Shown one piece after another: positions 1,270-11,443 of a stretch of DNA of 11,443 bases; the first letter of the stretch is position 1; every line of letters starts with the position of its first letter. A program made the position numbers and the translations under genes. The notes beneath the pieces were generated by a model that worked only from the letters and a program-made list of their open reading frames with translations, ran no database searches and was not told the origin of the DNA. Source of the DNA: a virus (taxonomy: Duplodnaviria > Heunggongvirae > Uroviricota > Caudoviricetes); IMG/VR virus record IMGVR_UViG_2551306674_000011, one strand, 5' to 3'.

Positions 1270-1336
1270 AAATAGTTATTGGTTGATTTTTAAAATGAGT
1301 GTTAAGTAACATAATCTGGAGTTTTTAATTGTTAGT

Positions 1337-1345
1337 TGCTATAAT
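1337..1345 (+). promoter_or_regulatory. Candidate extended -10 promoter element (TGcTATAAT) for the cII-like gene
   Basis: Sequence tgctataat at 1337-1345 in a very AT-rich spacer, about 15-30 nt upstream of the candidate start codons at 1361 (GTG) and 1376 (ATG). No convincing -35 hexamer. Confidence 0.3.
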
Positions 1346-1360
1346 AAAAATCAACGTGAA

Positions 1361-2170
1361 GTGAGTGTGATTAACATGGCTGAGTTATTGCGAGAGCAGG
1401 AAGTTAAAATAGCCCTAATTGAATGGTTATATAAAAAAGGCATGCTTAGTGATGCAACGATCATTAATGAAATGGTTGTTGCTAACTGGAGCAGAAGAGC
1501 TGATTTGGCTATTGCCAATGGAAGCCTACAAGCTTTTGAAATAAAAAGCGATTTTGACTCTCTTAAGCGCTTGGATGGTCAGTTAAAAATTTTTAAATCT
1601 AGCTTCGAAAAAGTTACAATTGTGTGCGCGCCAAAATTTACCAGTGAAGTATCTAAACGGGTTTCATCAGATGTTGGCGTTGTAGAATTTCAATCTAATA
1701 ATAGTAGCGTACGCTTTAAAATAATTCAAAAAGGAAGGGTTTGCTCTCGCTTAAATAAATTTGTTTATTTGGGTTTTTTGCTTAAGTCTGAGCTTAAAGA
1801 TCTGCTTAATCAGTATGGAATTACATTTTCAAATGAACTACATAGGGATTGTCTTGAGGTTTTGGCATCTAAGTTATCTTTAAACAAGATTAGAGAATTT
1901 GTCATTACATCTATTAAAAATAGGTATCATGCGACATCTAATGATTTTTTATCTAGACTCCATGGTAATCAAGAAATATCTATAAACGATCTTGCCTTAT
2001 TGAGCAAAGCTAAAAGAAGGAATAATTCTTTGGTTAAGTTTGAGTTTAAGGCTTGTTCGGAGAAATCTTTAAATGAATACCATAAGGTTGATGTTGACTC
2101 TATAGTTAGGAAATATGGCGATGATGTTTCCTATATTCCGGAAAAAGTACTTAAAAGGGTTGTGGGCTAG
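1361..2170 (+). CDS. cII: cII-like accessory protein (269 aa) with PD-(D/E)xK-like nuclease motif; resembles sce7726-family partners of Beta_protein genes
   Basis: ORF 1361..2170 (GTG start in the track; alternative ATG at 1376). Motif RADLAIANGSLQAFEIKSD gives an acidic residue on a hydrophobic strand followed about 12 residues later by E-x-K, the restriction-endonuclease-fold signature. AT-rich codon usage unlike the backbone. Convergent with beta and ends at a perfect hairpin terminator. The symbol is assigned by position in the P4 nonessential region, not by recognised sequence identity. Confidence 0.6.
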   Translation: MSVINMAELLREQEVKIALIEWLYKKGMLSDATIINEMVVANWSRRADLAIANGSLQAFEIKSDFDSLKRLDGQLKIFKSSFEKVTIVCAPKFTSEVSKRVSSDVGVVEFQSNNSSVRFKIIQKGRVCSRLNKFVYLGFLLKSELKDLLNQYGITFSNELHRDCLEVLASKLSLNKIREFVITSIKNRYHATSNDFLSRLHGNQEISINDLALLSKAKRRNNSLVKFEFKACSEKSLNEYHKVDVDSIVRKYGDDVSYIPEKVLKRVVG

Positions 2171-2196
2171 GGAAGGCTAACCTTCCCTAGTTTTTT
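2167..2196. terminator. Intrinsic terminator between the convergent cII-like and beta genes
   Basis: Perfect 10-bp inverted repeat ctagggaagg / ccttccctag (2167-2176 and 2181-2190) with 4-nt loop ctaa, followed by a run of six T (2191-2196) on the + strand. Stem overlaps the cII-like stop codon; the beta stop lies 2 nt beyond the T-run. Confidence 0.65.
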
Positions 2197-2197
2197 A

Positions 2198-3265
2198 TTA
2201 GATAAGATCTTCCTCATCATGATCAAAGCCATACTGTAGAGCTTCAGATAGCTCAATTTGCTTATTTAAGTGTAGATTCACTCGAACAGCAATCCATTTA
2301 GCTGGACTTCCCATACCTGCTATATCCCCTATAGCAGCATTTCTTATCATTGCAGCTCCCCAAGAGTCCTCCCTTTGATAATGTGGATACTCTGCCAAAA
2401 TTGATTTCGCAGCTTCAATGAACCCTTCTTTATTCATCCCAGGGCGGCGCTCGAAATACCATGAATCATTTAACGCTATATCAATTCTAGGAACATATCG
2501 CCCAATTATGTTGTCATACACTACTGAATGAATTGAACCATGATCGCCATAAATAGCGACATCACTTCCACCAATATTTTGATGCAATTCTCTCTCAATA
2601 ACATCAATATATCCGGACTGTCCATTTTCACGGCAAAAATTTGTAACTGAACTAGGGAAGCTTGTTGCTAGCACACTAATTATGGCTTCAGGAATCTCAG
2701 TTCTAATCTGATTAATCGAATTTATTGCTGCAGCTGTTATAGCAGATACATTCCCTCTAATGTAGCCCAAATCTATGAAAACTATGGCATTTTCTGGAGA
2801 GTTCATCGATACTAGTGACGTCAGGGTTTTATTAATGTCTGTATTTAGATTTCTAATTCTAAATGCAATTGAACCTTTAAGTTCCTCTAAAACCCTGGCT
2901 TGGATAGATATATCTCTAAGTTTTGCTGAATCCGGCATCTGGACTACTGGAATAATATTATCATTTCTGGAACAAAACTCTATCCAGTTTTTAAAACCAT
3001 TCTCAGGAGAGAGTAGTTCGAAGCTTGACGCGCAATGATGAGAATTATCCTTTGTGACATCCAAAATAAATGGGAGATTACTCATCACTTCTAAACTTTT
3101 ATCTAACGATACCTGTATTTCTTCCGAGCGAGGCCATTTCCCCAAAGAAATTAAAGGTAATATTTTTTTCTTATTCTCATATGATAAATTATTCAGTCCG
3201 GTCATTTCTGCTGATCGTGTTCTTAGGGCTGGATAGTATGAGTAATTTTCAAAATATACTTTCAT
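2198..3265 (-). CDS. beta: Beta_protein family (sce7725-like) protein, 355 aa; P4 beta-type
   Basis: ORF 2198..3265 (-). N-terminus YYPALRTRSAEMTGL...ILPLISLGKW resembles the Beta_protein family N-terminal pattern as I recall it. Strong RBS GGAGG (complement of 3276-3280) 10 nt before the ATG, which starts 2 nt after the gop stop, so the two are translationally coupled. Confidence 0.75.
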   Translation of the reverse strand: MKVYFENYSYYPALRTRSAEMTGLNNLSYENKKKILPLISLGKWPRSEEIQVSLDKSLEVMSNLPFILDVTKDNSHHCASSFELLSPENGFKNWIEFCSRNDNIIPVVQMPDSAKLRDISIQARVLEELKGSIAFRIRNLNTDINKTLTSLVSMNSPENAIVFIDLGYIRGNVSAITAAAINSINQIRTEIPEAIISVLATSFPSSVTNFCRENGQSGYIDVIERELHQNIGGSDVAIYGDHGSIHSVVYDNIIGRYVPRIDIALNDSWYFERRPGMNKEGFIEAAKSILAEYPHYQREDSWGAAMIRNAAIGDIAGMGSPAKWIAVRVNLHLNKQIELSEALQYGFDHDEEDLI

Positions 3266-3267
3266 AT

Positions 3268-3669
3268 TTAATTAGCCTCCGAATCGATATTTTCTGGTCG
3301 GCTTGCTGTTCTTGGCATAGCGTTAATTTGGGGGTTCTGAGTAGCAAGATAAGCAGCTATACTTTCCATCTTCTCTTTCTGTTCTGAAGTTCTTGCAAGT
3401 TCTTTAATCAATTCTTTGTTTTCAGCCATCAAGTTTTGATTGGATTCATTATGACTCTTGATTACCTCCATATTACTTTTTATAACATTCGTGTGGTTGT
3501 TGCTAATTGCTTTAATCGTTCTGTGTGTAAACCATCCAATAAGTAAAGCAGCTAACCATCCAGAACAAACGAGCAACCATTGTGAAATATCTTGGTTGCG
3601 GATGAAGCTAGTAGCAATAGTGATTATGGTCCCAACAACGCCAATTAATCCATATACATGATTCAGCAT
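3268..3669 (-). CDS. gop: Small membrane protein (133 aa), two N-terminal TM helices plus charged C-terminal helical domain; P4 gop-type
   Basis: ORF 3268..3669 (-). Hydrophobic segments VYGLIGVVGTIITIATSFI and WLLVCSGWLAALLIGWF, then a K/E-rich tail (NKELIKELARTSEQKEKMESIAAYL). First gene read inward from the cos side and coupled to beta. Symbol assigned by position and arrangement. Confidence 0.65.
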   Translation of the reverse strand: MLNHVYGLIGVVGTIITIATSFIRNQDISQWLLVCSGWLAALLIGWFTHRTIKAISNNHTNVIKSNMEVIKSHNESNQNLMAENKELIKELARTSEQKEKMESIAAYLATQNPQINAMPRTASRPENIDSEAN

Positions 3670-3896
3670 CCTTTAACTCTCTCATGCCACGAATTCTTAA
3701 GGATCTTGCGACACTGACAAGAACCACCTTACATCAATCTATTTTTTGCATATTTTTCAGGATAGTGCCATCAAAAAAGACAGTTTTGGACCATAGGCCA
3801 TAGATTTTCTTCATTATGCTCCAATGTATTAACGAGGTATGTACTGAAGGCACTTTGACTACACAAATAATTAACTAACTTGTCGGTTTGCGCGCG

Positions 3897-3915
3897 GTGC
3901 TTTCCCCGCCTCGCC
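3897..3915. other. cos site (P2/P4 19-nt cohesive-end sequence)
   Basis: gtgctttccccgcctcgcc at 3897-3915 is the reverse complement of GGCGAGGCGGGGAAAGCAC, the P2/P4 cohesive end as I recall it. It lies between the accessory cassette and psu, as expected for an integrated (circularly permuted) P4. Confidence 0.7.
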
Positions 3916-4017
3916 CGCCCGCTTTGCGGGGCGGTTTTAATGCAGTTGCACTGACACGCTCAGACCGCGCCGGGAATGGCGCGGTTTGCAGAAAATGAGG
4001 CAGGAAAACGCATGCAA

Positions 4018-4079: not shown

Positions 4080-4652
4080 TTACACTGACTGACGTGATGC
4101 CAGTTGCGCACTTTTACGCGAAAAAATCATGTTCTGCGCAGGGGTGAATTTTTCACGGCTGTCATCCACCGAAGCCACGTCAGGCCTGAATCCGATGGTC
4201 GTTAAAATGTCGCTATCCTGTGCGGAATAATTAATTTTTTCACCCTTCGCAAGCCAGGACAGAAGGGCTTCACGCAGGGCATCTGTGGCACGCTGTATGG
4301 CACAGTTTCGGGCAATGGCCGTCAGCTCACTGTAGCCCATCAGCTCCGGTGCCAGTGCGGCCGCCAGTGCTGTGCCGTGCTGCTGCATAAAATCATTCAG
4401 CCGGTCGCGGATGCTGATGTGCTGAACGGCTTCATGCGAACGAATATAACGACCGGCGGCCTGATTCACCTGCCATTTTCTGACTTCGATAATATTGCGT
4501 AATTCGTCCAGGCGGCTGACATTTCTGCCTTCTCCTGACAGAAGCCGCAGATATTCCTGTTCGGCCGCTGCCAGCTCATTTTTGCGTTGCAGCCATGCTG
4601 CTTTGTTATTCTGACAGGTGTCAAAGGCCTGCTGTAAGGCTGTGCTTTCCAT
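4080..4652 (-). CDS. psu: Polarity suppression protein Psu (190 aa)
   Basis: ORF 4080..4652 (-), 190 aa beginning MESTALQQAFDTCQNNKAAW, which I recognise as P4 Psu. Last gene of the sid-delta-psu operon. Confidence 0.9.
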   Translation of the reverse strand: MESTALQQAFDTCQNNKAAWLQRKNELAAAEQEYLRLLSGEGRNVSRLDELRNIIEVRKWQVNQAAGRYIRSHEAVQHISIRDRLNDFMQQHGTALAAALAPELMGYSELTAIARNCAIQRATDALREALLSWLAKGEKINYSAQDSDILTTIGFRPDVASVDDSREKFTPAQNMIFSRKSAQLASRQSV

Positions 4653-4725: not shown

Positions 4726-5226
4726 TCATTCCAGACGCAGCGAATATGATTGTGTTTTTAACCGTACTGGCGGCAGTTCCTGTTTTTCATGCAGGCGTTC
4801 TGCCAGTTCGTCCGGTGTGACCGGGCGGACAATGAAGCGGTTGATGGTCTGAAGCGTTTTAAACACCAGACCACAGCCCGGATCCGTGCACACATAAAAA
4901 CGCTCGGTGACTTCCTGAGACAGACGCCGCGATGTTCTTGACAGTGCAAGGCCTTTACATCTCCGACAACAATATCCGGTAACAAGCATTCTTTTCGGGC
5001 GTTTCATGCTACCGGAGGCTGACGTCAGTGAATCGCGGTATCTCTGTTTGCCTGAAATGTATTCCATTCCTGAATCTTTACAGTCAGAGAAAAAGCTTTC
5101 ACTCGCTTCAAATGTCGCAGAGCAATAAATATTCCGGCACTGTGCAATCATTATCTTGGTGCCATCGTCCATGAAATGTGCGCGACGGGTGTGAGCAACA
5201 TGTCCACACGACGGGCAGTAAATCAT
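4726..5226 (-). CDS. delta: Late transcriptional activator Delta (166 aa), two Ogr-like zinc-finger halves
   Basis: ORF 4726..5226 (-). Two Cys clusters (CPSCGH...C...C near the N-terminus, then CCRRC...CTDPGC) consistent with a tandem Ogr-like duplication. RBS GAGGA; the ATG overlaps the sid stop (ATGA). Confidence 0.9.
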   Translation of the reverse strand: MIYCPSCGHVAHTRRAHFMDDGTKIMIAQCRNIYCSATFEASESFFSDCKDSGMEYISGKQRYRDSLTSASGSMKRPKRMLVTGYCCRRCKGLALSRTSRRLSQEVTERFYVCTDPGCGLVFKTLQTINRFIVRPVTPDELAERLHEKQELPPVRLKTQSYSLRLE

Positions 5227-5957
5227 GACAGCAGTCCTCTGGCCTTAAGCACTGCTCCCTGCTGGTCTATTTTGTCCTGCCACACCTTGCGCTGTGCCGG
5301 TGTGCCTGCCACCTCATAATCCATGTGTGGGAGTGTTGCCGCTGACAGTCCGGTCAGCCGGAGAACCGGCTCGCCGGTGAGGCTGATTTGCATCTGTTTT
5401 ATTTTCTGTTCCAGCGATGATTTCACCTGCTGCATGACAGCTTTATCGGGTGCGACGTAGCCCTGATGCCCGGTGGTGTTGGCGAGCGGATTTTCCTGTA
5501 CCAGAATGCTCAGATGCATTGCCCGGACAAGCGCCTCACAGGTTTCATTCAGGGCGTGTTCCAGCTCATGCTCTGCATACAGACTCAGCAGGTGATGATG
5601 TGCCTTCCGGTAGGCGGTGGCCGTGCTGTCACACGCCCCTTTCAGGCGTTCACGTTCGAAATTCAGCACCACGGCCAGATTGTCATATTCCTGTACCAGC
5701 TCCCGGCGTGCCACGCGCTCAATGTGGCGCTGTTTCAGCTCGTCGCTCAGGACACCACCGGCTGCACGAAAGGCCGTGCGCCAGTCGTCAGCGTCGTTTC
5801 CGTCGGCCTGCGCCAGCGCATTTTTTTCCTGCTCTGCCCGTTCAATGGCCGTGACGGTCTCATCCATCAGGCGGGCGTTCTCAAGGTGGGCGGCTCTGGC
5901 CTTTTCCAGTTGTGCCAGCGCGGGTTGCAGATATTCAGGGATGGTGTTGTCAGACAT
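5223..5957 (-). CDS. sid: Capsid size determination / external scaffold protein Sid (244 aa)
   Basis: Start chosen at the ATG at 5957 (MSDNTIPEYLQPALAQLEKARAAHL) preceded by RBS GAGGAG at about 7 nt, not the track's longer 5223..6023 ORF whose extra 22 residues lack an RBS. 244 aa matches P4 Sid. Confidence 0.85.
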   Translation of the reverse strand: MSDNTIPEYLQPALAQLEKARAAHLENARLMDETVTAIERAEQEKNALAQADGNDADDWRTAFRAAGGVLSDELKQRHIERVARRELVQEYDNLAVVLNFERERLKGACDSTATAYRKAHHHLLSLYAEHELEHALNETCEALVRAMHLSILVQENPLANTTGHQGYVAPDKAVMQQVKSSLEQKIKQMQISLTGEPVLRLTGLSAATLPHMDYEVAGTPAQRKVWQDKIDQQGAVLKARGLLS

Positions 5958-5974
5958 TTTCCGGCTCCTCGTCA

Positions 5975-6047
5975 CTTCAGGTTGAGAAAATTGTGACGTA
6001 CACCGGACAACAACACGACGCATTGCAGATGTGCCAGCCCTGACACA
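5975..6047 (-). promoter_or_regulatory. Psid late promoter region with TGT-N12-ACA activator dyad
   Basis: Dyad TGT gccagccctgac ACA at 6030-6047, centred about 80 bp upstream of the sid ATG, matching the P2/P4 late-promoter activator (Ogr/Delta) half-site spacing. A dyad of this form is expected by chance a few times in 11 kb, so position is the main support. Confidence 0.5.
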
Positions 6048-6126
6048 GGAGACTCATCCTCAGACCGGCAAGCCAGGAAAAGGTCGCAGGAAAAACCGGC
6101 TTACTGTTTGTTTTTTTATATTTTAC

Positions 6127-6230
6127 TGTTCACCTCTGTTCACCATAAGAAAAAAGATAAGTAATACAATAAGTTAAAGGGTGAACAATCGCAGTAATGA
6201 CTGTTCACCGTCTGTTCACCACTGTTCACC
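6127..6230. repeat. Replication origin (ori) iteron cluster: six TGTTCACC octamers
   Basis: TGTTCACC at 6127-6134, 6137-6144, 6202-6209, 6213-6220, 6223-6230 and one inverted copy GGTGAACA at 6180-6187, in an AT-rich intergenic region between the divergent late promoters. The same octamer recurs in crr about 4.8 kb away. Confidence 0.7.
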
Positions 6231-6388
6231 CGTTGATGGGCTTTTTGTGCTGTTTATTACTTTTTATTTTTATTAATTCACTGAAATAAATAAGAAAAAA
6301 CAATTTGTATTTCACTATAATTTTTTCCAGCTCCTTCCAGAGCGTTTTAAAGCTATCTGGCGCTGGTGTACAAAAAATGCACAGCCAT

Positions 6389-6460
6389 TGTAAGGCTGCC
6401 GGAACAAATCCCCCCTGTTGCGTCTGCCAAAAATATTCACAAAATAAAGCGCTACCCGAA
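6389..6460 (+). promoter_or_regulatory. Candidate PLL (late leftward-operon) promoter with TGT-N12-ACA dyad
   Basis: TGT aaggctgccgga ACA at 6389-6406, about 110 bp upstream of the vis ATG. No strong -35/-10 pair, as expected for an activator-dependent promoter. Could be a chance dyad. Confidence 0.35.
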
Positions 6461-6508
6461 GCCGGACGGACTTATCCGGTGCTGTATGGACATTAACGAG
6501 GTAGCCCG

Positions 6509-6775
6509 ATGCAAGCTGTTTTTTCTTCCCCGTCTCCCGCCCCTGTGACGCCACTGATGCCGCTGCCGGACATCACGCAGGAGCGTTTTTTACGTCTGCC
6601 GGAAGTGATGCACCTGTGCGGCCTGTCACGCTCGACCATCTATGAACTCATCCGTAAGGGGGAATTTCCGCCGCAGGTGAGTCTTGGCGGTAAAAATGTG
6701 GCCTGGCTGCACTCTGAAGTCACCGCATGGATGGCCGGACGCATTGCCGGACGCAAACGGGGGTACGACGCATGA
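6509..6775 (+). CDS. vis: Vis, AlpA-like helix-turn-helix regulator/excisionase (88 aa)
   Basis: ORF 6509..6775 with RBS GAGG 7 nt upstream. Core [46 protein letters not shown] is the AlpA/Vis family HTH signature. Confidence 0.75.
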
Positions 6776-7371
6776 TGATGCCCGCTCTGCAAAAAGTCCC
6801 TTTTTCTGGCTTGCCTTTTTCCGGCATTTGCGGATATAGTTTTTCCGCTGTCGCAAAATCGGCAGCCGGGCGTGGAAACCCGAGCAATCTAACGGCGACA
6901 TATGACGCGCCATGCGTCTTTTTTTGTGTCGCAATCAACGCCACAGAGCGCCAGATTATGGTGTGGTGTGTGGTCAGTCGAGCAGATGGCACTCCGTGCA
7001 TCCTGCCCGCGTCCGCTCATTATGCCGCAGAGTCAATGGTAGCTCAGGCGGGGCAGCCTCCGGGCTGGCCGGTATCCGTTAGAGCCGGTATTTCCACCCC
7101 CGTCTGGGCTATCGCCATCGAGCGTGGAAACTCCGGCGATAGCGTAACCTGCTATCTAACGGAGGCTGCCATCATGGCTACAACCCTTACCCCTTCACAC
7201 CCTGAATTTGTCTTTGTGTTTGCGGCTGTCCGTCGCGCAGACCGTCATCCCCGTATCTGCATGCTTCGCACCGTCGCCGGTGATGAACGCAGCGCCTGCC
7301 GTTCCCTTGTCCGTGACTATGTGCTCTCCCTTGCTGCCCGTCTGCCGGTGGTGGAGGTGTCCCGTGCGTAA
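6772..7371 (+). CDS. eta: eta: long reading frame beginning at the vis stop and ending at the kil stop (kil nested in frame)
   Basis: Three consecutive in-frame ATGs at 6772-6780 overlap the vis TGA (ATGA coupling). Same frame and stop (7369-7371) as kil. Spans PLE, seqA, the CI RNA and seqC, matching the described nested eta/kil arrangement as I recall it. The track's 6727 start lies inside vis and is less likely. Confidence 0.45.
6811..6840 (+). promoter_or_regulatory. Candidate PLE constitutive promoter (-35 TTGCCT, 18-nt spacer, -10 TATAGT)
   Basis: TTGCCT at 6811-6816 and TATAGT at 6835-6840, placing the transcription start about 20 nt upstream of seqA. Confidence 0.45.
6868..6894 (+). 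promoter_or_regulatory. seqA-like immunity target site
   Basis: gggcgtggaaacccgagcaatctaacgg. Its ends (GTGGAAA ... CTAACGG) are complementary to the two ends of the seqB-like element at 7076-7098 and are repeated in the seqC-like element. Confidence 0.45.
7040..7110 (+). ncRNA. cI: CI immunity RNA region containing seqB (boundaries approximate)
   Basis: seqB-like segment ccgttagagccggtatttccacc at 7076-7098, whose reverse complement ggtggaaataccggctctaacgg matches the ends of seqA and seqC. Flanked by a GC-rich hairpin (cagcc tccg ggctg, about 7052-7064). Exact 5' and 3' processing sites cannot be set from sequence alone. Confidence 0.4.
7121..7161 (+). promoter_or_regulatory. seqC-like immunity target site overlapping the kil ribosome-binding site
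   Basis: gagcgtggaaactccggcgatagcgtaacctgctatctaacgg. The 3' CTAACGG runs directly into the kil Shine-Dalgarno GGAGG (7161-7165). Confidence 0.4.
7174..7371 (+). CDS. kil: Kil (65 aa), first translated gene downstream of PLE
   Basis: ATG at 7174 with RBS GGAGG and 8-nt spacer; 65 codons to the TAA at 7369-7371, nested in frame within eta. Length matches P4 Kil as I recall it. Confidence 0.6.
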
Positions 7372-10950: not shown

Positions 10951-11250
10951 GAAGGTGAACAATCAACTGTTCACCCTTCACCGTATATTCACCCGTTATC
11001 ACACTGAAATTAAAAGAGAAAAACGAAAGGTGAACAGTGTGAACAATCAAATCAAAAAAAACTTTTTTCTCCCTGCGTGATTTCAGTGCGGAGGATTAAT
11101 CACCGGTATGAGTCACATCGGCAGAATGCCGGAGGTGAAGAATCGAATGTTCACCCTTCACCCATTATTCACCACCTATCACTCTGAAATAAAAGGAGAA
11201 AACAGAAAGGTGAACAGTGTGAACAGTTCTTTCGAAAAAAAATTTTTTAT
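10951..11250. repeat. crr (cis replication region): two direct ~120-bp repeats, each with TGTTCACC/GGTGAACA octamers and an A8/T6 tract
   Basis: Repeat 1 about 10951-11070 and repeat 2 about 11131-11250 (offset about 180 bp) align along their length. Octamers at 10954-10961, 10968-10975, 11029-11036 and counterparts in repeat 2. Each repeat ends with a run of 8 A, then 2-3 nt, then 6 T. Confidence 0.7.
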
Positions 11251-11443
11251 GTGGATAAAAGATGCACTGGTTTGGATCCGAGCTACGGATCCAAACTTAC
11301 TGATTAAAAATGATTTAACTTTCCGATTTATTGATGGGCTGAAAATAGATTGGTCAGAAAAACAGTGGGGGCACAAAAGGGGGCATATTTCATTGTTGTG
11401 TTTTATTATTTGTTTTTTATCATTAACTTATTTTGATGTTTGA

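Follow-up and report, generated by a model that had tools for sequence, protein, structure and literature searches.

The gop-beta pair of a bacteriophage P4 prophage, a probable toxin and antidote within the gop-beta-cII defence unit

Introduction

Two adjoining genes on the minus strand of a viral DNA stretch of 11,443 nucleotides (the whole stretch is called the window below) raise the question of whether the small hydrophobic protein encoded by the first is a lethal membrane effector, held in check by the second, a member of the Beta_protein family. The original prediction answered that it is, and took the pair for an abortive-infection module of the toxin/antidote kind. As a discovery the locus is minor and the pair holds no novelty: it is already known, its genes having reportedly been named in 1990 and its role in defence validated in 2022. 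The original prediction re-derived the textbook reading from sequence alone. What remains of interest is the mechanism, the observations on the neighbouring gene cII and the modular family that beta and cII form.

The locus is that of bacteriophage P4

The genes and signals of the region are as follows.

3268..3669, minus strand: gop coding sequence, 133 aa (open reading frame; PADLOC gop; 'protein gop' in the P4 annotation)
2198..3265, minus strand: beta coding sequence, 355 aa, TIM-barrel-like, reported antidote of gop (open reading frame; PF14350; PADLOC beta)
1376..2170, plus strand: cII coding sequence, 264 aa according to the P4 annotation, convergent to beta (the longest open reading frame starts at a GTG at 1361)
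2164..2197, plus strand: rho-independent terminator of cII, directly adjoining the stop codon of beta (13-bp stem and T-run)
3693..3720, minus strand: candidate sigma-70 promoter for gop-beta, TTGTCA-16-AAGAAT (consensus scan, 9/12 matches)

The window is a prophage of the satellite phage P4. Over its whole length it is 98.7% identical to P4, and positions 1270-3915 show 100% DNA identity to the left end of the phage (X51522, NC_001609, M27748). The identity is thus complete across gop-beta-cII; in its remaining parts the window departs by about 1.3% from the P4 reference. The annotation of NC_001609 lists the same genes in the same order and on the same strands, with products of 133 aa (gop), 355 aa (beta) and 264 aa (cII), and the name 'protein gop' is used both there and in the RefSeq E. 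coli genomes. Pfam recognizes further P4 genes in the window, namely int, psu, delta and the alpha primase. The placement is that of the P4 hotspot, with int at 1-1269, psu at 4080-4652 and the cos end of the P4 record at about 3915. A 2.8-kb segment with gop-beta-cII is found in 39 complete E. coli genomes at an identity of at least 99.8%. Compared with the P4 system that PADLOC lists as 'gop_beta_cll', the DNA, the gene order, the strands and the terminator are the same, the HMM matches are full-length, and there is no difference in the region. Because every character of gop-beta-cII that could be tested was found here, the three genes are, to near certainty, the type example of the P4 defence system. 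The open reading frame that the original prediction had called gop-like is gop itself, and its partner is beta itself (PADLOC; 100% identity to P4).

The terminator of cII has a folding energy of -19.8 kcal/mol (z -3.6) and figures as a 'putative' terminator in NC_001609. The sigma-70 scan returned fewer sites than were found in shuffled sequences, and the promoter candidate upstream of gop counts as weak evidence. Ghisotti et al. are said to have described, in 1990, one promoter for gop and beta, with cII transcribed towards them as far as a terminator.

The published function of the locus is in line with the idea of a lethal effector checked by its partner in an abortive-infection module. 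Cloned from NC_001609 under its native promoter, gop-beta-cII protects E. coli against lambda and P1 (Rousset et al. 2022, PMC9122126). In a passage that cites Ghisotti 1990, the same paper states that gop is toxic without beta, and its authors proposed a toxin-antitoxin system acting by abortive infection (PMC9122126). The P4 hotspot is, moreover, home to other defence systems (PMC9122126). More recently, Silas et al. (2023; 10.1101/2023.04.06.535777) described gop-beta-cII as a toxin-antitoxin-like Abi locus and identified a phage accessory gene, orf184, as the trigger of its cell-death phenotype.

The gop protein and its junction with beta

The PADLOC gop profile is matched at E 4.3e-70, residues 1-133 of the protein covering profile positions 1-126 of 126. 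The parts of gop and of its junction with beta are the following.

3601..3657, minus strand: gop hydrophobic segment 1, residues 5-23, VYGLIGVVGTIITIATSFI (Kyte-Doolittle 2.01)
3529..3585, minus strand: gop hydrophobic segment 2, about residues 29-47, SQWLLVCSGWLAALLIGWF (Kyte-Doolittle peak 1.56 for residues 28-46; G37-W38...A41)
3271..3519, minus strand: gop hydrophilic tail, residues 51-133 (all hydropathy windows negative; 10 K+R, 11 D+E)
3276..3280, minus strand: Shine-Dalgarno-like GGAGG for beta (inside the Ser-Glu-Ala codons of gop, 10 nt before the ATG)

The hydropathy profile (Kyte-Doolittle, 19-residue window, classical cut-off 1.6) bears out the two hydrophobic helices and the charged tail that had been read from the translation. 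The second segment is moderately hydrophobic, its peak falling just under the cut-off, and the two are separated by a short six-residue loop, RNQDIS. The position of segment 1 is kept across gop homologues, and G37, W38 and A41 in the second transmembrane segment are invariant in the gop alignment, where identities range from 16 to 28%. The tail gives weak matches to coiled-coil families (Taxilin) and is predicted to be helical, with a coiled-coil-like stretch followed by a C-terminus containing Pro and Arg. By the positive-inside rule, applied to the HRTIK that follows the second segment, it probably lies in the cytoplasm.

The junction with beta reads, on the minus strand, ...GAT TCG GAG GCT AAT TAA AT ATG AAA GTA... 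Both details on which the original prediction built can be read directly from it: the gop stop codon (TAA, 3270-3268) is separated by 2 nt from the beta ATG (3265-3263), and the ribosome-binding site of beta, GGAGG at 3280-3276, lies within gop codons. This geometry suggests that the two genes are translationally coupled. Since beta starts 2 nt past the gop stop and takes its ribosome-binding site from within gop, cells that make gop would therefore also make beta. The beta start could be placed reliably at 17 loci. At all 17, the stop codon of the gop-like gene lies between -17 and +11 nt from the beta ATG, and at 14 a Shine-Dalgarno-like motif is present 6-10 nt upstream of that ATG. The close gop-beta arrangement is a selected feature and not a chance juxtaposition.

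Predicted folds of beta and cII

The beta protein matches the Pfam family Beta_protein (PF14350) over residues 10-337 at E 4e-56, scoring 191 bits against a cut-off of 27, and the PADLOC beta profile at E 8e-188. The PADLOC profile PD-Lambda-2_C also matches P4 beta, at E 8e-14. The AF2 model of beta (pLDDT 91.2) shows alternating strands and helices and is best described as a predicted TIM barrel with a C-terminal helix. An alignment of 42 sequences, with a mean column identity of 54%, has forty invariant columns, and the DSSP string places many of the invariant residues where strands end on their C-terminal side or shortly beyond (R15/R17, G42/W44, D69, P106, R170, S202/P204 and D241/S244/H246). 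If the model is right, these residues would sit where the active sites of TIM barrels lie. Beta_protein is the sole Pfam match, and no DNA-binding domain is detectable in beta. Searched against PDB sequences, the beta profile gave chance-level matches (best E 0.006). Beta was also checked for being the 'sce7725' partner of sce7726, with no match, and no NCBIfam model matches beta.

The gene cII, on the opposite strand and convergent after beta, encodes a member of the sce7726 family (PF26915). It matches PADLOC cll at E 3.5e-113 and the NCBIfam model sce7726_fam with 151 bits against a cut-off of 70. In its model (pLDDT 90.4), the invariant residues E37, D48 and E60-x-K62 fall on strands 1-3 of a predicted restriction-endonuclease-like fold. 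The PD-(D/E)XK fold is defined by an alpha-beta-beta-beta-alpha-beta core carrying D...(D/E)xK on strands 2-3; cII may be a nuclease-like protein of this kind. The C-terminal part is predicted to be helical and SAP-like. Matches of the cII profile to PDB sequences were at chance level (best E 0.09), and our literature search found no paper calling cII a nuclease.

Conservation at distant loci

A pattern scan built on the beta alignment, limited to one genome per species, yielded 48 loci from Alpha-, Beta- and Gammaproteobacteria and from two metagenome-assembled genomes (MAGs), one of Desulfobacterales and one of Thermoguttaceae. At 45 of the 48, beta is directly followed by a cII homologue in convergent orientation. 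The defence unit is thus made of three genes, gop, beta and cII. The toxin/antidote relation that had been proposed for the pair stands, but the interval to which it was confined leaves out cII.

Conservation of the upstream gene is less regular. A gop-like open reading frame, taken as one of 120-166 aa that has one or two strongly hydrophobic segments near its N-terminus and stops no more than about 20 nt from where beta begins, precedes beta at about 28 of the 48 loci, and 18 of these were recognized as gop homologues by iterative HMM search. An alphaproteobacterial group of gop-like proteins aligns with the gop profile at an hhalign probability of 96.6%. The resemblance extends to the G-W motif of the second helix, to a coiled-coil stretch and to a C-terminus with Pro and Arg. 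Searches that start from gop reach less far. In an index of 5.8 billion proteins, relatives were found only in Enterobacterales and Aeromonas; a scan of viral contigs with the single gop sequence returned only three near-identical P4-like contigs; and the distant gop-like genes came to light only through their position next to beta. The homologues from Aeromonas and Klebsiella that were looked up from gop show the P4 arrangement, with 1 nt between gop and beta and then a convergent cII.

Two copies deserve mention in their own right. In Aeromonas caviae (CP085468.1; L053, 2537-7524), gop-beta-cII lies outside a P4-like element and is flanked by two DDE_3/HTH transposase genes, which suggests a transposon-like mobility of the cassette. 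On an E. coli plasmid (JAMOLS010000006.1; L056, 4001-5420), the one exception among the copies looked up from gop, what is left is a truncated gop of 116 aa and small fragments of beta, of which a single 79-aa piece matches PF14350; both partners have apparently been inactivated together. This double decay is in keeping with a toxin that cannot be kept intact after loss of its antidote.

At other loci, beta and cII occur without a gop-like gene directly upstream. This is the case in Burkholderiales (L011, L015, L016, L017, L022 and L037) and in Photorhabdus (L034, L036 and L040), the pairs spanning about 4900-6900 of each locus, and it means that beta is not tied to gop. At about 4990-6600 of three loci from Photorhabdus and Spirabiliibacterium (L040, L044 and L046), beta, cII or both are split into two open reading frames, apparently by frameshifts or as pseudogenes. 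Elsewhere, the place of gop is filled by other genes. A membrane open reading frame and an M78 (IrrE/CapP-like) peptidase gene stand directly upstream of beta in L041 (3843-6671), L047 (3890-6170) and L049 (3697-6687), and an HTH-S24 peptidase takes the position of gop in L044 (4320-6751). Three of these loci (L041, L044 and L049) have a convergent cII after beta; in L047 a cII was looked for and not found. The arrangement of these M78 and S24 variants is reminiscent of PD-lambda-2.

Comparison with known systems

PD-lambda-2 is composed of a HigB-like toxin, an Xre-peptidase fusion and a third, beta-like protein (PMC9519451). Like gop-beta-cII, it includes a member of the Beta_protein family, resembles toxin-antitoxin systems and provides abortive defence against lambda (Vassallo et al. 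2022, PMC9519451). It differs in that its toxic part is the Xre-peptidase protein, which is neutralized by the HigB-like protein, so that the beta homologue is not the antidote, and in that it has no gop. Taken together, the role of this homologue, the occurrence of beta without gop and the size and fold of beta, a 355-aa TIM barrel in the model, make it probable that beta is more than a passive antidote and that the word 'antidote' describes it incompletely.

A type II toxin-antitoxin system likewise pairs a toxic gene with a protective one, closely spaced and transcribed together. In gop-beta, however, the toxin gene comes first, the protective protein is predicted to be a TIM barrel of 355 aa, and a third, convergent gene is co-conserved. 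Type II antitoxins are small and usually carry a DNA-binding domain of the HTH, RHH or AbrB type, by which the operon is autoregulated, a description that does not apply to beta. Because beta is a large TIM barrel, as modelled, and lacks a DNA-binding domain, the pair is not a canonical type II system.

The RexA/RexB system of lambda comes close in concept. There, too, a prophage encodes a small membrane protein that a cytoplasmic partner controls and that kills the infected cell or halts its growth, and it is this idea of a membrane effector under a cytoplasmic partner that the two systems share. The direction of control differs: the membrane protein of Rex is switched on by its cytoplasmic partner, whereas gop is reportedly held back by beta. 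In sequence, gop and RexB are unrelated, and the sole RexB match (E 2e-4) was to the membrane open reading frame of the M78 variant L049.

Mechanism and alternative readings

The outline that we favour, in which gop is a toxin, beta its restraint and phage infection the trigger of an abortive response, is in our estimate correct for the pair with a probability of about 0.85. The module would be the gop-beta part of gop-beta-cII, lodged in the variable 'defence hotspot' of P4 between int and cos/psu. Its first protein would reside in the inner membrane, where, by the topology predicted above, an N-terminal hairpin of two helices would anchor a coiled-coil-like tail exposed to the cytoplasm, and gop alone would be lethal to the cell, as the literature has it. 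From the same transcript, and presumably by coupled translation, the cytoplasmic beta would be made and would keep gop harmless; the restraint is taken from the literature, the manner of it is our supposition. Infection by certain phages (lambda and P1, with orf184 as a trigger) would lift this restraint, and the released gop would cause the cell to die or to stop growing before the phage cycle is completed, which amounts to abortive infection. We infer that gop kills by damaging the membrane. A search of the literature found no experiment showing membrane disruption by gop or binding of beta to gop, and no paper that explains the lethality of gop, its restraint by beta or the action of cII.

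The distribution of the genes leaves room for a different emphasis, in which beta and cII are the functional core and gop, an accessory membrane output or regulator, belongs to a set of additions that can replace one another. In such a core, beta would be an enzyme or a ligand-sensing TIM barrel and cII a DNA-acting PD-(D/E)XK nuclease, and beta, in acting as an 'antidote' to gop, would be showing a secondary side of that regulation and not its main job. The constancy of cII, convergent and immediately 3' of beta in all but three of the 48 loci, from Proteobacteria to the Thermoguttaceae MAG, speaks for it, as do the pairs without gop of the Burkholderiales and of L034 and L036, and the replacement of gop elsewhere by an M78 (CapP-like) peptidase with a membrane protein or by an HTH-S24 peptidase. 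The invariant residues of cII on its first three predicted strands, and the 40 of beta, point the same way, and PD-lambda-2C, the homologue of beta, is needed for defence and not for the neutralization of the toxin (PMC9519451). Against this, relief of gop toxicity by beta is reported as experimental in the passage cited above (PMC9122126), the nuclease activity of cII and the enzymatic activity of beta are predictions, and several copies without gop in Photorhabdus and Spirabiliibacterium look decayed, with a split beta or cII, so that some of the loci lacking gop may be relics. We regard this reading as possible, at clearly less than even odds. A still more tentative version, which we find somewhat unlikely, generalizes it: beta would be the catalytic or ligand-sensing hub of a widespread set of modules, with cII as its constant partner and with gop-type proteins or M78/S24 peptidases as swappable parts. 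If it were true, a TIM-barrel enzyme or sensor would control a nuclease, a membrane effector or both, and no defence system has so far been described as working in this way. Whichever emphasis is right, the predicted barrel of beta with its invariant set, the putative nuclease cII and the conserved beta-cII pair with its variable upstream partners offer handles on the mechanism.

Two other explanations bear on gop itself. The toxin/antidote behaviour reported in the cited passage (PMC9122126), and the presence of the cassette on mobile elements (P4-like satellites, the Aeromonas copy between DDE_3 transposase genes, the plasmid copy), could be read as signs of an addiction module, which would stabilize P4 as a plasmid or prophage by post-segregational killing and protect against phages only incidentally. 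Protection from lambda and P1 was, however, measured with a plasmid clone carrying the native promoter (PMC9122126), toxicity is triggered by a specific phage gene (10.1101/2023.04.06.535777), and the genes sit in a P4 hotspot with other defence systems (PMC9122126). In addition, Rousset et al. built P4-Kan, a phage in which gop is swapped for a kanamycin cassette (PMC9122126). Addiction would also require beta to be more labile than gop, and nothing suggests that it is. We therefore hold this explanation to be improbable. The two hydrophobic helices and charged C-terminal tail of gop resemble class II holins in outline, and gop might accordingly be pictured as a holin-like or superinfection-exclusion protein, timing lysis or blocking DNA entry, and not as a regulated suicide effector. 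This is very improbable indeed. Class II-like holins belong to a lysis cassette with an endolysin, and gop does not: the window contains no endolysin or spanin open reading frame, the constant partner of gop is beta and not a lysis gene, and for lysis P4 depends on its helper, P2. Comparison of gop with the holin families of Pfam and PHROGs gave no match. A regulated effector, toxic by itself and restrained by beta, thus remains the reading that we prefer for gop.

Other features of the window

The open reading frame at 5223-6023 is without a Pfam match; its position is that of the annotated sid gene of P4. At 3915-3945 on the plus strand, where the cos end of P4 is expected (coordinate 1 of the P4 record), a GC-rich hairpin, CCGCCC…GGGCGG, stands directly before a T-run and was scored as terminator-like in the terminator scan. 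Finally, the plus strand at 10955-11443 contains two stretches resembling open reading frames, with near-identical peptides (…FTLH.IFT.YH.EIK.E.RKVNSVN…). They fall among the direct repeats of the replication-origin and cis replication region of P4, and are thus DNA repeats, not genes.
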